From an uncultured delta proteobacterium (GTDB lineage Bacteria; Desulfobacterota; BSN033; UBA1163): 64,000 nucleotides of DNA. This document shows, in pieces, positions 11,348 through 38,913 of the stretch. Position 1 is the first letter of the stretch; each line of letters begins with the position of its first letter. The translations under genes and the position numbers were made by a program. The stretch covers positions 224,001 through 288,000 of the forward strand of contig CAVPSJ010000004.1 of NCBI GenBank assembly GCA_963708295.1. The letters run 5' to 3'. The notes beneath the pieces were generated by a model. It made no database searches, had not been told where the DNA came from, and worked only from the letters and a program-made list of their open reading frames with translations.

Positions 11348-11569
11348 AACTCGAGATCCGAATATCGGGAGAAGCGTCCGTCTCGGACCAATCCGAAACA
11401 AGGATATTAAACCCTAAACTCGAAACCCAAAACCCTAAACAAACTCCAATGTCGAAACCACAAAACTCAAACCCTATAATCTTTTGAGTTTTAGATTTTG
11501 GGTTTGTTTTAGGTTTAGAATTTAGTGTTTAGAGATTAATCCATTTCGGATTTCGTGCTTCGAATTTAA
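11348..11569. repeat. Nested inverted heptamer-array element; shares ends with 30677-30839
   Basis: 11356-11401 matches 30686-30731 at 45/46 nt; 11549-11569 identical to 30819-30839; inner AAACCCT / GTTTAGA arrays. Confidence 0.85.
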
Positions 11570-16729: not shown

Positions 16730-16786
16730 TCTCAGGTTCAGGCTAAGGCTGAGGTTAAGAAGTGCTAAACCTTAACCTCAACCTAA
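16730..16786. repeat. Inverted hexamer array
   Basis: caggtt-caggct-aaggct-gaggtt / aacctt-aacctc-aaccta. Confidence 0.75.
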
Positions 16787-22260: not shown

Positions 22261-22341
22261 ATTTCGGAATGCGGATTTCGGAATGCGGATTTAGAATCTT
22301 CGTTTTACATTCCGAATTCCGCATTCCGAAATCCGAAATTA
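22259..22341. repeat. Inverted heptamer array
   Basis: atttcgg-aatgcgg-atttcgg-aatgcgg / ccgaatt-ccgcatt-ccgaaat; fills radC / ATP-grasp spacer. Confidence 0.85.
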
Positions 22342-30913: not shown

Positions 30914-31690
30914 ATGGCTATTCTATCCACAAAAAAAGTCACCAAACGCTTCGGCGGGTTGATCGCCGTAGGCGATTTGGACATCGAAATCAAAGAGCAC
31001 AGCATCCACAGTATCATCGGACCCAACGGCGCTGGCAAGACGACCTTTTTCAATTGCGTTACCGGCTTTTACCGGCCTGAATCCGGAGAGATTCTATTGA
31101 GCCACCACTCCCTCGTTGGCCTGTTGCCCGACCGAATCGTTCGTCTTGGAATTTCTCGCACCTATCAAAATATTCGCCTCTTTCCCAACCTCACCGCCAT
31201 GGAGAATATCCTCGCGGGCCTCCATAGCCACTTGAGAGCAGGGTTCTTTGGTATTTTGGTTGGATTCCCTGCTGTCCAACAAGAAGAAAGAGAAGCAGCG
31301 GAAGAAGCGCGGCGTCTCCTTAAGTTCGTCAACCTCGCTGGGAAGGGCGATTTCCTGGCAAAGAATCTTCCCTATGGCGACCAGCGACGGCTGGAAATTG
31401 CCCGGGCCTTGGCTGCTCGCCCCAAACTTCTGCTCCTCGACGAACCCACGGCAGGCATGAATCCAAGAGAGACGCAGGATATGATGGATTTCATCCGGCA
31501 CCTCCGTGATGAGCTGGGAATCACGATCCTTCTCATCGAACATCAGATGAAGGTCGTGATGGGTATCTCTGAATCCGTCACCGTATTGGATTATGGGGAA
31601 AAAATCGCAGAGGGCGCCCCGGCCGAAATTCAGAAAGACCCAAAGGTCATCGAGGCCTATTTGGGAAGATCGAGTCAAGTAGTCTTGTAG
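30914..31690 (+). CDS. livG: Branched-chain amino acid ABC ATPase LivG
   Basis: GPNGAGKTT, LPYGDQRRLEIARALA, LLLDEP, VIEAYLG. Confidence 0.95.
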   Translation: MAILSTKKVTKRFGGLIAVGDLDIEIKEHSIHSIIGPNGAGKTTFFNCVTGFYRPESGEILLSHHSLVGLLPDRIVRLGISRTYQNIRLFPNLTAMENILAGLHSHLRAGFFGILVGFPAVQQEEREAAEEARRLLKFVNLAGKGDFLAKNLPYGDQRRLEIARALAARPKLLLLDEPTAGMNPRETQDMMDFIRHLRDELGITILLIEHQMKVVMGISESVTVLDYGEKIAEGAPAEIQKDPKVIEAYLGRSSQVVL

Positions 31691-31756
31691 TCAAATAGTC
31701 ATGAAAAATCACAAGACTAAAATGTTGCCTGACTAGATTTTATGACTACTTGACCA
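31674..31756. repeat. AGTC/GACT 8-mer inverted array upstream of four-helix-bundle pseudogene
   Basis: agtcaagt-agtcttgt-agtcaaat-agtc / gactag..gactactt-gacc; contains livG stop. Confidence 0.7.
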
Positions 31757-31766
31757 AGAGCAAAAA

Positions 31767-32060
31767 ATGAAGATTGAGAAATTTGAAGATTTAGATTGCT
31801 GGAAGAAGGCAAGGTAATTGGCTAACTTGGTTTATGATCTTACGAATCAAAGGAGCTTTGTGAAGGATTTCCACCTACGGGATCAAATGCGGGATGCCGC
31901 AGGGTCGGTAATGCACACCATTGCGGAGGGGTTTGCGGCAGGTTCCGATGCGGAGTTCGTCCGATTCTTAAAAATCTCTCGACGTTCTGCAAGCGAGGTG
32001 CAATCACAGCTATATCTTGCGCTTGATCAATGGCCTTATCGCATACTTGCATCGAGATAA
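31767..32060 (+). pseudogene. Four-helix-bundle (23S rRNA IVS-protein family) pseudogene
   Basis: MKIEKFEDLDCWKKAR*LA..LRDQMRDAAGSVMHTIAEGF..EF.RFL.ISR.SASEV.SQLYLALD; in-frame TAA after KKAR and lost C-terminal helix. Confidence 0.88.
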
Positions 32061-32061
32061 A

Positions 32062-32205
32062 AAGTAGTCCAGTAGTCATATCGTCGCGTGGTCCTATAGC
32101 TTTATAGTCCCGTATTGGTTAATTTTGTTTTTTGGGTCTTTGACTATGTGACTATCTGACCATGTGACCACAGGACGACAAGACTATTCGACGACAAGAC
32201 CACTT
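32062..32205. repeat. AGTC/GACT 8-mer inverted array downstream of pseudogene
   Basis: gtagtcca-gtagtcat.. / gactatgt-gactatct-gaccatgt-gaccacag-gacgacaa-gactattc. Confidence 0.8.
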
Positions 32206-35536: not shown

Positions 35537-36850
35537 TTACAACTTGTAACCCGCAATCCGCTTTCTCAGAAGCCCGTAGATCAAACCCCCCAAGATCATG
35601 CTTGGCAAAGAGGAGCCCAGGGGCCATGGAAAGGCTGCTTTGGTTTGCAGCACCTTTTCCATTAACATCGGTGAAAAGCCCAAATAAACAGCAAATCCAA
35701 TCGCCCAGGCGATGATCGCCATAGGATTGATCCCTTTCGCAAACCAGTATTTCCCCTCCTTCTTATAAAGATCTTCCAAATCGATCTCTCCTCTCCTTAA
35801 GAGAAAGTAATCAACGAGAACGATCCCGAAGAGAGGACAGAACATGGCCCCAATAAAGAGAAGAAAATGCTCATAATCGAGTATGGCAGGGAAAATAATT
35901 GCAACAATGATCCCCAGGATTCCGCCGATCCAGATTCCTGCTCGTTCTCCCAGTTTAGGGAAAATATTCAGTCCCGAGATTGCTGTGGAATAAATATCCA
36001 AGAAGGTGGTGGTGAAGGTAGAGAAGAGAACGATGATCAGAGCAGGAATGGCCCATCCAAATTTCAGCATGAGATTCATCACCACTCCTGAAGGGTCAGG
36101 AGACTGGGTGGCAAGGGCGGCCGTCAGTCCGATGAGGTACATCCACGAAGAGACAACAAAATAACCGACCCAGGTTCCCCAAAAACTTCTTTTCGAATCC
36201 GTGGCAAAGCGCGAATAATCCGAGACCAGAGGAAGCCAGGAGATGGGCATGGCGATCACAAGATCCATTCCTACCATGAAAGGGAAATCTCCCTTTCTCG
36301 GAATTTGAGAGAGCGTCCCCCATCCGTACTCTTGAAAGACGATGTAGGTCATGACCACACACAATATCATCAGGACGAAAACAGAGACTCGTTGGAGCCA
36401 CTTCCAGAACCGGTGACCCACTACCGCCCACAACGTCGTGATCACCCCTGCAAGGATGATCCAAAGGTTGAGGTTCGAAAACCCGTAGAACTTGGAGATG
36501 GCATCGGCTGCCTGGCCACAAACGATCAGCATGACCGCGGTCCAGCCGATGAGCTGGATCACATTGAGGGCAGCGGCAAAGTAAGAGCCTCTGATCCCGA
36601 AAGAAGGCCGGACGCTCACCATTGTCGGAATGCCCCATCGGCTCCCCATCAAGCCGCCCAAAGCAAAGGGGGTGTTCCCAATCAGGTGGCCGAGAAGAAT
36701 AGCCCAAAGGCCCAGCCCTAAGCCCAGAGGGACCACCAAACTCCCCGCCCAAATCTCTGCTAAAGAGATCGCTGCTCCTGCCCACAGTAGAAAGAAATCC
36801 CAACCGCCTAAATTCCTCTCTTCTTTTGGAATCGGTTCAATTCCAGGCAT
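35537..36850 (-). CDS. cytX: Putative hydroxymethylpyrimidine transporter CytX (NCS1 family)
   Basis: LWAGAAISLAE, RPSFG.RGS, QLIGWT, MPISWLPLVSDYSR, STFTTTFLD; in thi operon. Confidence 0.88.
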   Translation of the reverse strand: MPGIEPIPKEERNLGGWDFFLLWAGAAISLAEIWAGSLVVPLGLGLGLWAILLGHLIGNTPFALGGLMGSRWGIPTMVSVRPSFGIRGSYFAAALNVIQLIGWTAVMLIVCGQAADAISKFYGFSNLNLWIILAGVITTLWAVVGHRFWKWLQRVSVFVLMILCVVMTYIVFQEYGWGTLSQIPRKGDFPFMVGMDLVIAMPISWLPLVSDYSRFATDSKRSFWGTWVGYFVVSSWMYLIGLTAALATQSPDPSGVVMNLMLKFGWAIPALIIVLFSTFTTTFLDIYSTAISGLNIFPKLGERAGIWIGGILGIIVAIIFPAILDYEHFLLFIGAMFCPLFGIVLVDYFLLRRGEIDLEDLYKKEGKYWFAKGINPMAIIAWAIGFAVYLGFSPMLMEKVLQTKAAFPWPLGSSLPSMILGGLIYGLLRKRIAGYKL

Positions 36851-36882
36851 CGGTCGCCCCCTTTGTAACAGTAAGCAAAAAG

Positions 36883-36911
36883 GTAATGAGTGATCGGTAA
36901 TCAGTCATCAG
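36883..36911. repeat. Downstream arm of heptamer inverted repeat
   Basis: Complementary to 37333-37361 at 24/29 positions. Confidence 0.8.
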
Positions 36912-37308
36912 TTGTTGAAAAACGCTTATCACAAAAAATGTCCGCTTTATTGATCATCGAATTGATCATCCTACCGATTTCGGAAAGGGAACTGTTTAGT
37001 TTTTGGGTTTGTTCTAGGCTCAAATATCTACAATCTTCTGCCGTTTCGATCCAATGTTGTGTTTCTTGCTGCTCACCATCAGCATCAGTAAGTTTGCTTA
37101 CAAAATGTTTCTTATACCGTCTCTTAGCCCATGCCTCGGCAATCTGTGCTCCAACAGAACGCGATGATCGTCTCACCTGGTCAGTCAAGGAATACATTTC
37201 TTCCTTAGGAAAAGACTTTGTCAGTTCAAAAATTGACTTTGCTAACTTTCGAGCGTTCTTATAAACAACCAGGTCCCTGAAGCTCTCAGCATGTCCCAAT
37301 TTACTCAT
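36901..37308 (-). CDS. Four-helix-bundle protein (23S rRNA IVS-protein family)
   Basis: FRDLVVY, FPKEEMYSLTDQVRRSSRSV.AQIAEAW.KRRY, DADGE..ET..W. Confidence 0.93.
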   Translation of the reverse strand: MSKLGHAESFRDLVVYKNARKLAKSIFELTKSFPKEEMYSLTDQVRRSSRSVGAQIAEAWAKRRYKKHFVSKLTDADGEQQETQHWIETAEDCRYLSLEQTQKLNSSLSEIGRMINSMINKADIFCDKRFSTTDD

Positions 37309-37332
37309 CGATCTCCCCTTTTCTTAATATCT

Positions 37333-37361
37333 CTGATCACTGGCTACTGATCACTGATTAC
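37333..37361. repeat. Upstream arm of heptamer inverted repeat
   Basis: Sense ATCAGTA-ATCAGTG-ATCAGTA-GCCAGTG; contains thiD stop. Confidence 0.8.
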
Positions 37362-38695
37362 TGATCTCTGCCTACTGCCTTCAATATTTTCTGAACGACT
37401 TCCGTGGGATTCCTCCCCAACACTCGGATCATCGGTTCTTTACCCACATCCCCTTGATCGTAGATAAAATCAGGAACGCGCCTCATCTTTCTCAAGACGT
37501 CTCCCACCCCCCACGCTAGGGAGGAGCCTTCCTGCTTTTTCAACTTTTTTGGTTCGAGCCTCCGGTCAAAATGGCCAACCAGAAAACCTTTTCTCCCCAA
37601 CTGCTCAACCGTTTCTCTTGAATATCGGATATTCATTGCCGAACAATATTCGGGATCAAATTTCATGACGGTCAGAATGAGGTTGGCCACATGCCGGGAC
37701 GCCCCAAATTCAGGATCGCTATAAGTGGTGACCGAATCCTTGAATCGGACAATTCTTCCAGGAAAAGCCGCCACGTCTTCCAGTCCTTCTGCAAAAGGAA
37801 GAGCATACCCTAAGTTTGAAGAAACCTCCGGAATGAGACGCCCGATCTCCTCCCCCTTCAATACTTCCACTGCTCTCCTTATCTCCTGGATCACTTGATA
37901 CCGCTCCATCTCCCTCAGGACATAAGCAGAGGGATTGGTCGGTCCATGCCCTTTCCCGAGGTTGAGACCGGACCGAATCGCCATGGTGATAAAGTTCTTT
38001 GCCTTTCTCACCGCTTCATCGACAGGTTCCCCTCTTGCCAGGAGCGTTGCGATCGCAGACGCAAAGGTGCACCCCGTTCCGTGGGTATTTTTTGATTCAA
38101 TCCTCGGTCCCTCTATCTCGCTAAAACGTTCCCCGTCGTAAAGGAGGTCAACCGCCATCCCCTTCAGATGGCCTCCTTTGATGACCACATATTTCGTTCC
38201 CATTCTGTAGATTTGCTGAGCGGCTTTCTTCATTCCCTTCAAGGAGTTTACCTTGAACCCTGCCAGGGCCGAGGCCTCCATCAGATTCGGCGTCACCACC
38301 CATGCCATGGGAATCAATTTCTTAATGAGTATCTCTTGGGCATCCTTGTGAAGAAGCGAAGCCCCGCTCTTTGAGATCATGACCGGGTCTACGACCACCT
38401 TCTTGACCTTATACTGCTTGATCTTTCGGGATACGACCTCAATAATCTCTCGATTTGCCAGCATGCCTGTCTTGACGGCATCGACGCCGATGTCCGAGAG
38501 GACCGCATCAATCTGCTCCTCAACAAACCGCGGAGGAACTTCGTGAATGCCTTGAACCCCTACCGTATTTTGTGCCGTAAGGGCCGTAATAGCGCTCATT
38601 CCGAAACCACCCAGCAAGGTGATTACTTTTAGATCCGCCTGAATTCCTGCCCCCCCGCCCGAATCCGACCCGGCGATCGTCAATACTCGCTTCAT
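37358..38695 (-). CDS. thiD: Bifunctional HMP/HMP-P kinase - thiamine-phosphate synthase (ThiD-ThiN fusion)
   Basis: LTIAGSDSGGGAGIQADLK, THGTGCTFAS; C-terminal ThiN-like IPEVSSN..FGASRHVA..MNIRY..GDVGKEPMIR. Confidence 0.93.
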   Translation of the reverse strand: MKRVLTIAGSDSGGGAGIQADLKVITLLGGFGMSAITALTAQNTVGVQGIHEVPPRFVEEQIDAVLSDIGVDAVKTGMLANREIIEVVSRKIKQYKVKKVVVDPVMISKSGASLLHKDAQEILIKKLIPMAWVVTPNLMEASALAGFKVNSLKGMKKAAQQIYRMGTKYVVIKGGHLKGMAVDLLYDGERFSEIEGPRIESKNTHGTGCTFASAIATLLARGEPVDEAVRKAKNFITMAIRSGLNLGKGHGPTNPSAYVLREMERYQVIQEIRRAVEVLKGEEIGRLIPEVSSNLGYALPFAEGLEDVAAFPGRIVRFKDSVTTYSDPEFGASRHVANLILTVMKFDPEYCSAMNIRYSRETVEQLGRKGFLVGHFDRRLEPKKLKKQEGSSLAWGVGDVLRKMRRVPDFIYDQGDVGKEPMIRVLGRNPTEVVQKILKAVGRDQ

Positions 38696-38725
38696 CTCTC
38701 TTTCCTCCCGATGAAAAAGCAAAAT

Positions 38726-38761: not shown

Positions 38762-38772
38762 CGTTTCCATTT

Positions 38773-38872
38773 TCCGCTTCCCTTCGCTGGAATTACCCTG
38801 ACAGGTTCGGAGGGTCTCCCTATCCCGCCAGAGCGGGACAAGGACTCTCAGCCCAATGAGCTCCCCTAGCTA
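38773..38872 (-). ncRNA. TPP riboswitch
   Basis: Minus strand CTAGGGGAGC..GCTGAGAG..GACCCTCCGAACCTG..GGGTAATTCCAGCGAAGGGAAG, upstream of thiD. Confidence 0.93.
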
Positions 38873-38884
38873 TATTCTAAAACA

Positions 38885-38913
38885 ATTTTACTCGACAGCG
38901 GGGAGTATGTCAA
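38885..38913 (-). promoter_or_regulatory. sigma-70 promoter of thi operon
   Basis: TTGACA-N17-TAAAAT just upstream of the riboswitch. Confidence 0.8.

Follow-up and report, generated by a model that had tools for sequence, protein, structure and literature searches.

A four-helix-bundle gene framed by inverted heptamer arrays between thiDN and cytX: a probable mobile cassette of the rRNA intervening-sequence type

Intervening sequences (IVSs) that carry an open reading frame (ORF) within bacterial 23S rRNA genes were proposed long ago to have originated as mobile elements, and Ralph and McClelland are said to have published work on them in 1993. In Leptospira and in helix 45 of Coxiella burnetii such an ORF, encoding a protein of the four-helix-bundle family PF05635, sits in the loop between terminal inverted repeats of ∼28–30 bp. 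For the Coxiella IVS, the accessible text of PMC4990558 describes a 28-bp stem and excision by RNase III, as well as a tandem run of two to three GACAGAT heptamers on the 5′ side of the ORF, the 5′ cut of RNase III being at the start of the first repeat. Here we analyse a gene of the same protein family in a 64,000-nt stretch of contig CAVPSJ010000004.1 (hereafter the window) from an uncultured delta proteobacterium (genome G000; 4.9 Mb, 20 contigs, 91% complete). The gene lies on the minus strand between two protein genes, thiDN and cytX, and is enclosed by inverted arrays of the heptamer CAGTRAT; gene and arrays are together referred to as the cassette.

The architecture of this locus is family-wide: it includes the ORF-bearing 23S rRNA IVSs and leaves gene-less hairpins built of the same units. 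The cassette is mobile, spreads laterally and lands anew at the same junction. It is fairly likely that it represents an IVS-type mobile cassette, that is, a promoterless gene with its own Shine-Dalgarno (SD) sequence between inverted arrays of a heptamer specific to its protein subfamily.

The likeness to 23S rRNA IVSs, to which the earlier note on this DNA had drawn attention, extends to the repeats of rRNA-borne copies. Among the six plasmid-borne homologs examined, the copy of Azospirillum lipoferum 4B lies within a 23S rRNA gene, the locus as a whole matching RF02541 at 2135 bits. Its arms abut rRNA and consist of arrays (CAGAGGA CGGATGA CAGAGGA CGGAGGA) that are complementary at 27/30 positions. 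Taken together, the heptamer arms of Coxiella and Azospirillum indicate that the classical ORF-bearing IVS shares the design of the thiDN–cytX cassette. The arms of the latter are likewise predicted to form a long stem around the insert. The present copy differs from the rRNA IVSs in being located in a messenger RNA (mRNA) operon, between two protein genes and with an SD sequence, and not within a 23S gene; none of the 13 family matches in the genome falls inside its 23S gene (C8:287926-290970). Furthermore, its ORF is intact and apparently under purifying selection, and its arms provide the neighbouring gene with stop codons. Cutting by RNase III is known for the Coxiella IVS, whereas for the mRNA of the present cassette such processing may be expected by analogy; the RNase III gene, rnc, is present in the genome.

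Inverted arrays around the cassette gene

From the sequence alone, the earlier note had described two arms that pair at 24 of 29 positions plus one G-U, that contain the stop codons of thiD and of the enclosed gene, and that enclose only an SD sequence and an ORF within thiDN–cytX. All three statements are borne out. In a repeat search the arms (36883-36911 and 37333-37361) were recovered as 29-nt repeats, 83% complementary and 421 nt apart, and a manual alignment of the two arms on the sense (minus) strand gave 24 Watson-Crick pairs, one G-U pair and four mismatches. On that strand the 5′ arm, with its outer units, reads GCAGTAG GCAGAGA TCAGTAA TCAGTGA TCAGTAG CCAGTGA TCAG. The two-and-a-half-unit pattern CAGTRATCAGTRATCAG, allowing up to two mismatches, has six matches in the window, all of them within the two arms; only 0.04 would be expected by chance, and six matches were attained by none of 100 shuffles. 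RNA folding prolongs the stem outward, with GGCAGUAGGCAGAGA pairing to UUUUUGCUUACUGUU, and the resulting helix spans ∼37333-37379 with 36866-36911 (∼47 nt). This long stem is found in both the minimum free energy (MFE) and the centroid structure (MFE −141.1 kcal/mol, z −3.2; 0/100 shuffles equally stable). The features of the locus, in window coordinates, are as follows.

38885-38913, minus strand: promoter-like site TTGACA-17-TAAAAT ahead of the operon; 11/12 consensus positions, a consensus match only
38762-38877, minus strand: thiamine pyrophosphate (TPP) riboswitch heading the thiDN–cassette–cytX unit; RF00059, 58.8 bits (gathering cut-off 54.3), full length 1-105
37358-38722, minus strand: thiDN, hydroxymethylpyrimidine phosphate (HMP-P) kinase fused to ThiN; PF08543 and PF10120, NF006346 at 555 bits (cut-off 528)
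37365-37379, minus strand: outer 5′ arm, two GCAGWAG-type units; the unit is seen at the same junction in congeners G003, G007 and G008
37333-37364, minus strand: inner 5′ arm, ∼4.5 tandem CAGTRAT heptamers; from repeat search and sequence
37313-37318, minus strand: SD sequence GGGGAG of the cassette gene, 4 nt ahead of its ATG
36901-37308, minus strand: 135-aa ORF of the 23S rRNA IVS protein family, four-helix-bundle; PF05635, TIGR02436
36882-36911, minus strand: inner 3′ arm CTGATGA CTGATTA CCGATCA CTCATTA CC, the inverse of the 5′ units; from repeat search and sequence
36866-36881, minus strand: outer 3′ arm TTTTTGCTTACTGTTA, remnant of a GCAGTAG-type array that folds onto 37365-37379; from RNA fold and congeners
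35537-36850, minus strand: cytX, putative HMP transporter; TIGR02358 at 371 bits (cut-off 310)

The arrays are integrated into the ends of the genes that they join. The last codons of thiDN and its stop (TAA, 37358-37360) are encoded by the 5′ array, the last residues of the cassette protein (TTDD) and its stop (TGA, 36901-36903) by the 3′ array, and the SD sequence and start of cytX follow ∼15 nt past the 3′ arm. The cassette occupies the spacer from the thiDN stop to the cytX SD within an operon controlled by a TPP riboswitch. No promoter- or terminator-like site was found on the minus strand between thiDN and cytX. The arms have the general form of bacterial tandem heptamer arrays, with 2–6 head-to-tail 7-nt units at gene boundaries and stops in three frames: since the 5′ units contain TGA or TAA, three of them stop all three frames of a gene reading into the element.

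The product of the ORF matches PF05635 over the whole profile (positions 1-106 of 106; E 7.7e-34, 116.5 bits, cut-off 33.8) and TIGR02436 over positions 1-108 of 109 (E 6e-32, 110.1 bits, cut-off 24). Two of its sequence relatives have solved structures, 2RLD (E 5.9e-11) and 2GSC (E 1.5e-07), with five chains each, and by homology the cassette protein is probably pentameric as well. Avd of the diversity-generating retroelements (DGRs), a nucleic-acid-binding pentamer, belongs to a homologous four-helix-bundle fold family, and the cassette protein matches the bAvd profile PF22296 at E 8.8e-15. It differs from Avd in scoring 50.1 bits on NF033474 (DivGenRetAVD), below the cut-off of 80, and in its neighbours, which are thiDN and cytX; no reverse transcriptase gene adjoins the cassette.

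Protein subfamilies and their repeat units

In order to compare family loci, we took as arm score that of the highest-scoring inverted repeat formed without gaps by the two 200-nt flanks, each match counting +1 and each mismatch −2. The 13 PF05635 matches in G000 correspond to 12 loci, with arm scores of 19, 17, 18, 27, 15, 17, 10, 13, 15, 24, 17 and 14. Random spans of the same size (n = 400) had a mean score of 8.0, a 99th percentile of 11 and a maximum of 13, the last being exceeded by 10 of the 12 family loci and equalled by one. The arms of these loci are short tandem arrays with a period of 6–9 nt, and the unit differs by locus (AGGTTR, GGAGACR, GGACTGA, GTGTCC, CAGTRAT and others). In 20 related genomes, 18 of 28 family loci scored at least 13 and 14 scored above 13.

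To cover a wider range of hosts, homologs were collected by a scan of one genome per species, which returned 472 relatives; the best 80 (63–95% amino acid identity) were analysed. A single cassette protein was used as the query, so that this cross-phylum sample represents one subfamily only. It includes metagenome-assembled genomes and isolates labelled Chloroflexota, Bacteroidota, Verrucomicrobiota, Planctomycetota, Lentisphaerae, 'Deltaproteobacteria', Thermodesulfovibrionales, Gemmatimonadota, Chlorobiota, Hyphomicrobiales and others. The survey for flanking inverted arrays that the earlier note had called for yielded arm scores of at least 13 in 61/80 homologs (median 18), as opposed to 1/144 position-shifted controls. 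The unit is CAGTNAT or CGGTNAT nearly throughout, and at least two CRGTNAH units per side, in the expected orientation, are present in 62/80 homologs. What surrounds gene and arrays varies: the array-to-ATG spacer shows no conservation, and the upstream genes represent ∼30 Pfam architectures among 74 frames (five frames without a family). Long co-directional frames flank 51/80 loci on both sides according to a crude frame analysis, and the downstream gene, where close, has its SD sequence within ∼10–20 nt after the 3′ array.

At the variable N position, 281/338 of the 5′ units (80 loci) have a purine. A model in which both arms carry a purine there, giving periodic purine-purine mismatches, was rejected: 70% of the 3′ units (242/347) have a pyrimidine at this position and are mostly complementary to the 5′ units.

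The remaining plasmid-borne homologs extend the range of units. Arms of GCAGGGG type, complementary at 23/26 positions, surround the homolog of Nostoc punctiforme PCC 73102, and those of Nostoc edaphicum match at 42/47 positions. The homolog of Anabaena sp. 90 lies between cas6 and cas4 with GGTGACA arms (30/32), and that of Leptolyngbya has weaker arms (26/33). Within the set of class genomes, protein clusters of at least 55% identity also keep to one unit (GTCAGRA in 4/4, GGRTTCRAGG in 3/3 and a CGTG-type unit in 8/9 cases). In addition, the two arms of one cassette agree better with each other than with arms of other cassettes having the same unit (median 18 vs 12; own pair higher in 60/75 loci). 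Protein subfamily and unit thus stay paired across phyla, while spacers and neighbour genes do not. A unit that is fixed within a subfamily across phyla and drifts between subfamilies, with loss of the adjacent non-coding sequence, points to a sequence-specific reader travelling with the cassette. The protein, as the sole thing that travels with it, would be that reader. The earlier proposal that the protein binds its cognate repeats thus has indirect support from the joint travel of subfamily and unit.

It is very improbable that the association is a coincidence, with tandem-repeat hairpins acting as generic intergenic terminators or stabilisers and family genes simply favouring intergenic space. 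Such hairpins are certainly plentiful in G000. Tandem Repeats Finder (TRF) reported 949 short arrays (period 5–10, at least 2.8 copies), 440 of them of period 7; 84 inverted array pairs lie within 1.5 kb. In 51 of these pairs the loop is shorter than 100 nt and carries no gene, and ordinary genes, tpiA and rnhB among them, are enclosed by a few. However, family genes explain most pairs that are 397–710 nt apart, 10 of the 12 family loci lie above all 400 random controls, the same unit recurs in 61 of 80 homologs across phyla against 1 of 144 controls, and rRNA genes harbour elements of the same design.

Several family loci deviate from the simple layout. Among the 12 G000 copies, two are interrupted by in-frame stops and a GIY-YIG gene splits one. 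The split copy (C15:199362-199969; locus L013:1593-1916) is halved into profile positions 1-48 and 47-106 by an inserted GIY-YIG ORF (PF01541, E 1.2e-13), and inverted GTGCTGCA arrays still bracket the entire locus, which belongs to a group of four family loci that lie within 10 kb, next to an exosortase-like gene. The window holds a second family cassette (31672-32203, plus strand) between two ABC-transporter ATPase genes. Its ORF starts at 31768 and has a premature TAA at 31815-31817, with the PF05635 match (E 4e-20) downstream of that stop, and its TAGTCNNR arrays form one hairpin on each side of the gene. A variant layout is seen at L078, L112, L139, L067 and in G003/G008, where a complete hairpin (array, loop, inverse array) precedes the gene on the 5′ side and an array or hairpin follows on the 3′ side.

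Mobility of the cassette and gene-less hairpins

The cassette gene (91–95% amino acid identity) is present in 5/68 genomes of the class, belonging to three genera, and in all five it is located between thiDN and cytX. In comparison with four relatives, nucleotide identity is 87–91% for the gene, 73–80% for thiDN and 77–79% for cytX, and conserved residues are encoded by identical codons in 70–79%, 45–53% and 46–57% of cases, respectively. Being less diverged at synonymous sites than both of its flanks, the cassette must be younger than the split of the flanks and have reached the same junction laterally.

The junction is variable also over shorter distances. In a contig of DNA run X1, position 36865 is joined to 37354 and 36866-37353 are replaced by 136 other letters, the flanks differing by 2 and 13; a near-identical strain thus carries a gene-less allele. 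Among congeners, G003 has a 53%-identical family gene with GCAGTAG arrays at this junction, as does G008, in which the gene is apparently broken; G001 has a third subfamily with TTGCAGA arrays, and G007 a gene-less GCAGTAG hairpin. No element is present in G011 or in G013, a member of another family in which the stop codon of thiDN and the start codon of cytX overlap. In G000, both arms have GCAGTAG-type units at their outer ends, which indicates that the CAGTRAT cassette is nested in the remains of an older element. The comparison with empty sites suggested in the earlier note has therefore produced a gene-less allele as well as junctions that are empty or differently filled in relatives. Its view of the locus as a transposase-less mobile cassette at an operon junction agrees with the patchy distribution (5/68), with an age below that of the flanks and with the ∼30 contexts across phyla.

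The cassette contains no transposase gene, as a transposon or a miniature inverted-repeat transposable element (MITE) would require or depend on, and no duplication is seen when filled and empty sites of a gene-less hairpin (C17:148941, below) are compared. Like repetitive extragenic palindromic sequences and bacterial interspersed mosaic elements (REP/BIME) or MITEs, the present elements are multicopy short intergenic hairpins, often between genes of the same operon, that are present or absent between strains. They differ from these in that the arms are tandem 6–8-nt units of many unrelated families, a subset having a gene in the loop, and in that no REP-associated tyrosine transposase (RAYT) or other transposase was associated with them in the loci examined and no target duplication was seen. 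With integron gene cassettes they share a promoterless ORF that would be expressed by read-through, a mobile unit and a structured imperfect inverted repeat relevant to recombination. Unlike in integron cassettes, the gene has repeats at either side, neither integrase nor attI is nearby and the cargo is always of the same protein family; insertion is into ordinary operons and rRNA helices. A phage as the vehicle was considered and dropped, just one weak match being found in 50,697 phage records.

Gene-less relatives of the cassette arms occur elsewhere in G000. An exact 15-mer of the cassette arm is present at five other sites, and of ten shuffled arms nine gave no site and one gave a single site. 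(A census of 12-mers was abandoned in favour of 15-mers because the counts of shuffled controls were equally high.) The gene-less CAGTRAT hairpin that G000 has at C17:148941 is missing from 6/6 congeners examined, in which the genes overlap as ATGA; in G000, ∼115 nt replace ∼12 nt and bring a new stop, a hairpin and a new SD sequence, with no duplication. Gene-less hairpins of the same unit are thus recent insertions. Two hot spots (L151 and L152, at C4:606711 and C12:258921 in G000) hold four unit families across congeners, namely CAGTRAT, CCAAATY, TGGAATA and CAAATGA. The window itself contains further gene-less inverted-array hairpins at 11408-11533 (TAAACCC), 16740-16784 (AGGCTA/AACCTC) and 22265-22337 (CGGAATG).

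The class genomes, which are 64–100% complete, were also searched with a pattern of three tandem CAGTRAT units. The five gene carriers have 19–37 array matches each, their own arms counted, vs a median of 0 in the 63 other genomes. This difference, together with the five other G000 junctions that share the exact arm 15-mer in gene-less arrays, would suit an alternative in which the protein is a transcriptional or post-transcriptional regulator of heptamers at gene ends and starts genome-wide, its own arrays being autoregulatory and its mobility secondary. The accessible texts on the arrays of Geobacter (PMC2700814), Nostoc (10.1101/2022.06.06.494920) and Beggiatoaceae (PMC4679880) do propose unidentified binding partners. 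We nevertheless hold this explanation to be unlikely. The counts in carriers include the arms of the cassette and come from related genomes that are not independent, and 6/11 unit families of G000 have no other site sharing a 15-mer. Many genomes have arrays and no gene: 26 of the 63 class genomes without a found gene have at least one CAGTRAT match, and G028 (same family, other genus; 4.3 Mb, 81% complete) has 217 matches and no close homolog of the gene found. Given the completeness of these genomes, absence of the gene from array-bearing ones is not proven; the abundance of arrays where no gene was found implies that arrays persist or spread without the protein in cis. The two G000 copies with in-frame stops and the split copy fit dispensable selfish cargo better than a global regulator.

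Candidate mechanism and wider relations

For an IVS-type mobile cassette, the following course of events can be envisaged. The cassette gene would be transcribed by read-through of the operon, and the arms would pair in the RNA to form an interrupted stem of ∼30–47 bp that loops out the SD sequence and the ORF. RNase III might cut this stem, as it does in rRNA-borne members, giving separate thiDN, cassette and cytX messages. A pentameric protein would bind the tandem heptamers in a sequence-specific manner, and such binding would explain why the unit sequence is conserved beyond arm complementarity. New insertions would enter resident arrays or hairpin loops, serving as landing pads, by way of host recombination or replication, with no transposase encoded by the element.

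Several results weigh against this picture or parts of it. One of the 12 G000 loci has an arm score (10) inside the control range, and scores are below 13 at 10/28 loci of the related genomes and in 19/80 homologs; one pair of proteins of 55% identity has different units, and the plasmid copy of Oscillatoria nigro-viridis PCC 7112 (L145) has long purine-rich arrays of GGGAGAGTG type that are direct, not inverted. To these may be added the arrays of genomes without a found gene and the lack of a target-site duplication or other transposition signature at the junctions in congeners and at the C17 hairpin site. Binding of the repeats by the protein is wholly an inference. As regards RNA, a search of sequencing runs retrieved none in which at least half of the sampled words were present; the two RNA-library runs contain 5% of them, and their contigs come from relatives at 85–90% identity. 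One such contig (X20, record 29) spans thiDN, the array and the start of the gene, which is not proof of co-transcription, and no observation points to circular or re-joined RNA. Finally, arm mismatches show G-U and A-C pairs at similar frequency (84 vs 78 in 73 loci, p 0.69; 19 vs 21 in 26 loci). There being no excess of G-U over A-C, the pattern is explained at least as well by maintenance of the arms at the DNA level as by selection on the sense RNA.

A role of the arms in DNA is accordingly a serious rival, although we rate it as somewhat unlikely. The arrays would act as single-stranded DNA hairpins or cruciforms, or as recombination homology, and form the ends and landing pads of a module moved by the host; equally doubtful is the corollary that the protein is a DNA-binding helper and the mRNA stem a by-product. 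Apart from the mismatch pattern, this explanation would suit the likeness of arms within a cassette, as gene conversion or hairpin repair would give, and the nesting of CAGTRAT units inside older GCAGTAG units. The intergenic hot spots with four array families in congeners, the precise gain of the gene-less hairpin at C17:148941 and the re-acquisition of the cassette at one junction can be read in the same way. On the other hand, we found neither a recombinase nor a target duplication nor a conserved terminal motif, and rRNA-borne members are processed as RNA at heptamers experimentally, according to the accessible text of PMC4990558. The stop-to-SD placement, the stop codons within units and the SD sequences borne by the elements are adaptations to transcription and translation. 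The DNA-level and RNA-level readings are, moreover, mutually compatible.

Tandem heptamer arrays have been described in bacteria before, STRR sequences being one type. Others include TAACTGA direct repeats of Beggiatoaceae, cyanobacteria and Bacteroidetes, which provide three-frame stops and for whose spread, in the words of the accessible text, 'no mechanism is evident' (PMC4679880), octa- and heptanucleotide arrays that occur in pairs in Geobacter metallireducens and were attributed to unidentified regulators (PMC2700814, accessible text), and repeated heptamers close to start codons in Nostoc PCC 7120 (10.1101/2022.06.06.494920, accessible text). They resemble the present arrays in having 2–6 units, a position at gene ends or starts, three-frame stops and a patchy spread across phyla, and TAACTGA is a rotation of the present 3′-arm unit (ATRACTG). 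They differ in that the accessible texts of these three sources name no partner protein, whereas the present arrays occur as inverted pairs that frame genes of one specific subfamily. PMC4679880 contains none of the terms 23S, four-helix and intervening. In PMC2700814 there is no mention of four-helix, four helix or 23S, and the single 'intervening' refers to intervening genes; the 12 of its 19 supplementary files that were searched contain no S23, TIGR02436, helix bundle or intervening sequence. A literature search, in which few subscription journals were covered, found no work tying the PF05635 family to flanking heptamer arrays beyond the Coxiella IVS.

We put forward, tentatively, the possibility that four-helix-bundle IVS proteins are the sequence-specific partners of such arrays (STRR-like, TAACTGA-like and Geobacter paired arrays). 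Proteins and arrays together may constitute an unrecognised class of transposase-less mobile elements, which would insert into hairpin loops and stop-to-SD spacers, have many protein/unit specificities and shed hundreds of gene-less hairpins, with the ORF-bearing rRNA IVS as a special case. If true, this would explain the origin of ORF-bearing rRNA IVSs and the role of their conserved ORF, the abundance of heptamer arrays in cyanobacteria, Beggiatoaceae, Geobacter and others, and their crossing of phyla, and it would give the widespread TIGR02436 family a role outside DGRs. The pairing of subfamily and unit predicts that each protein binds its own heptamer array and offers a natural set of orthogonal protein/repeat pairs.

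There are also consequences for annotation. Genes of the PF05635 family wedged into cas operons are mentioned in the accessible text of PMC3936711, and the present reading would account for the small 'four helix bundle' genes wedged in operons, cas loci and rRNA genes. Annotators should be aware that flanking arrays rewrite the ends of neighbour genes.

A separate observation concerns the G000 locus L012 (C13:219464-219739), where the family domain lies within a 314-aa open frame that is also found in G012; the upstream gene apparently reads, stop-free, via a CAAAGKT array into the family domain.

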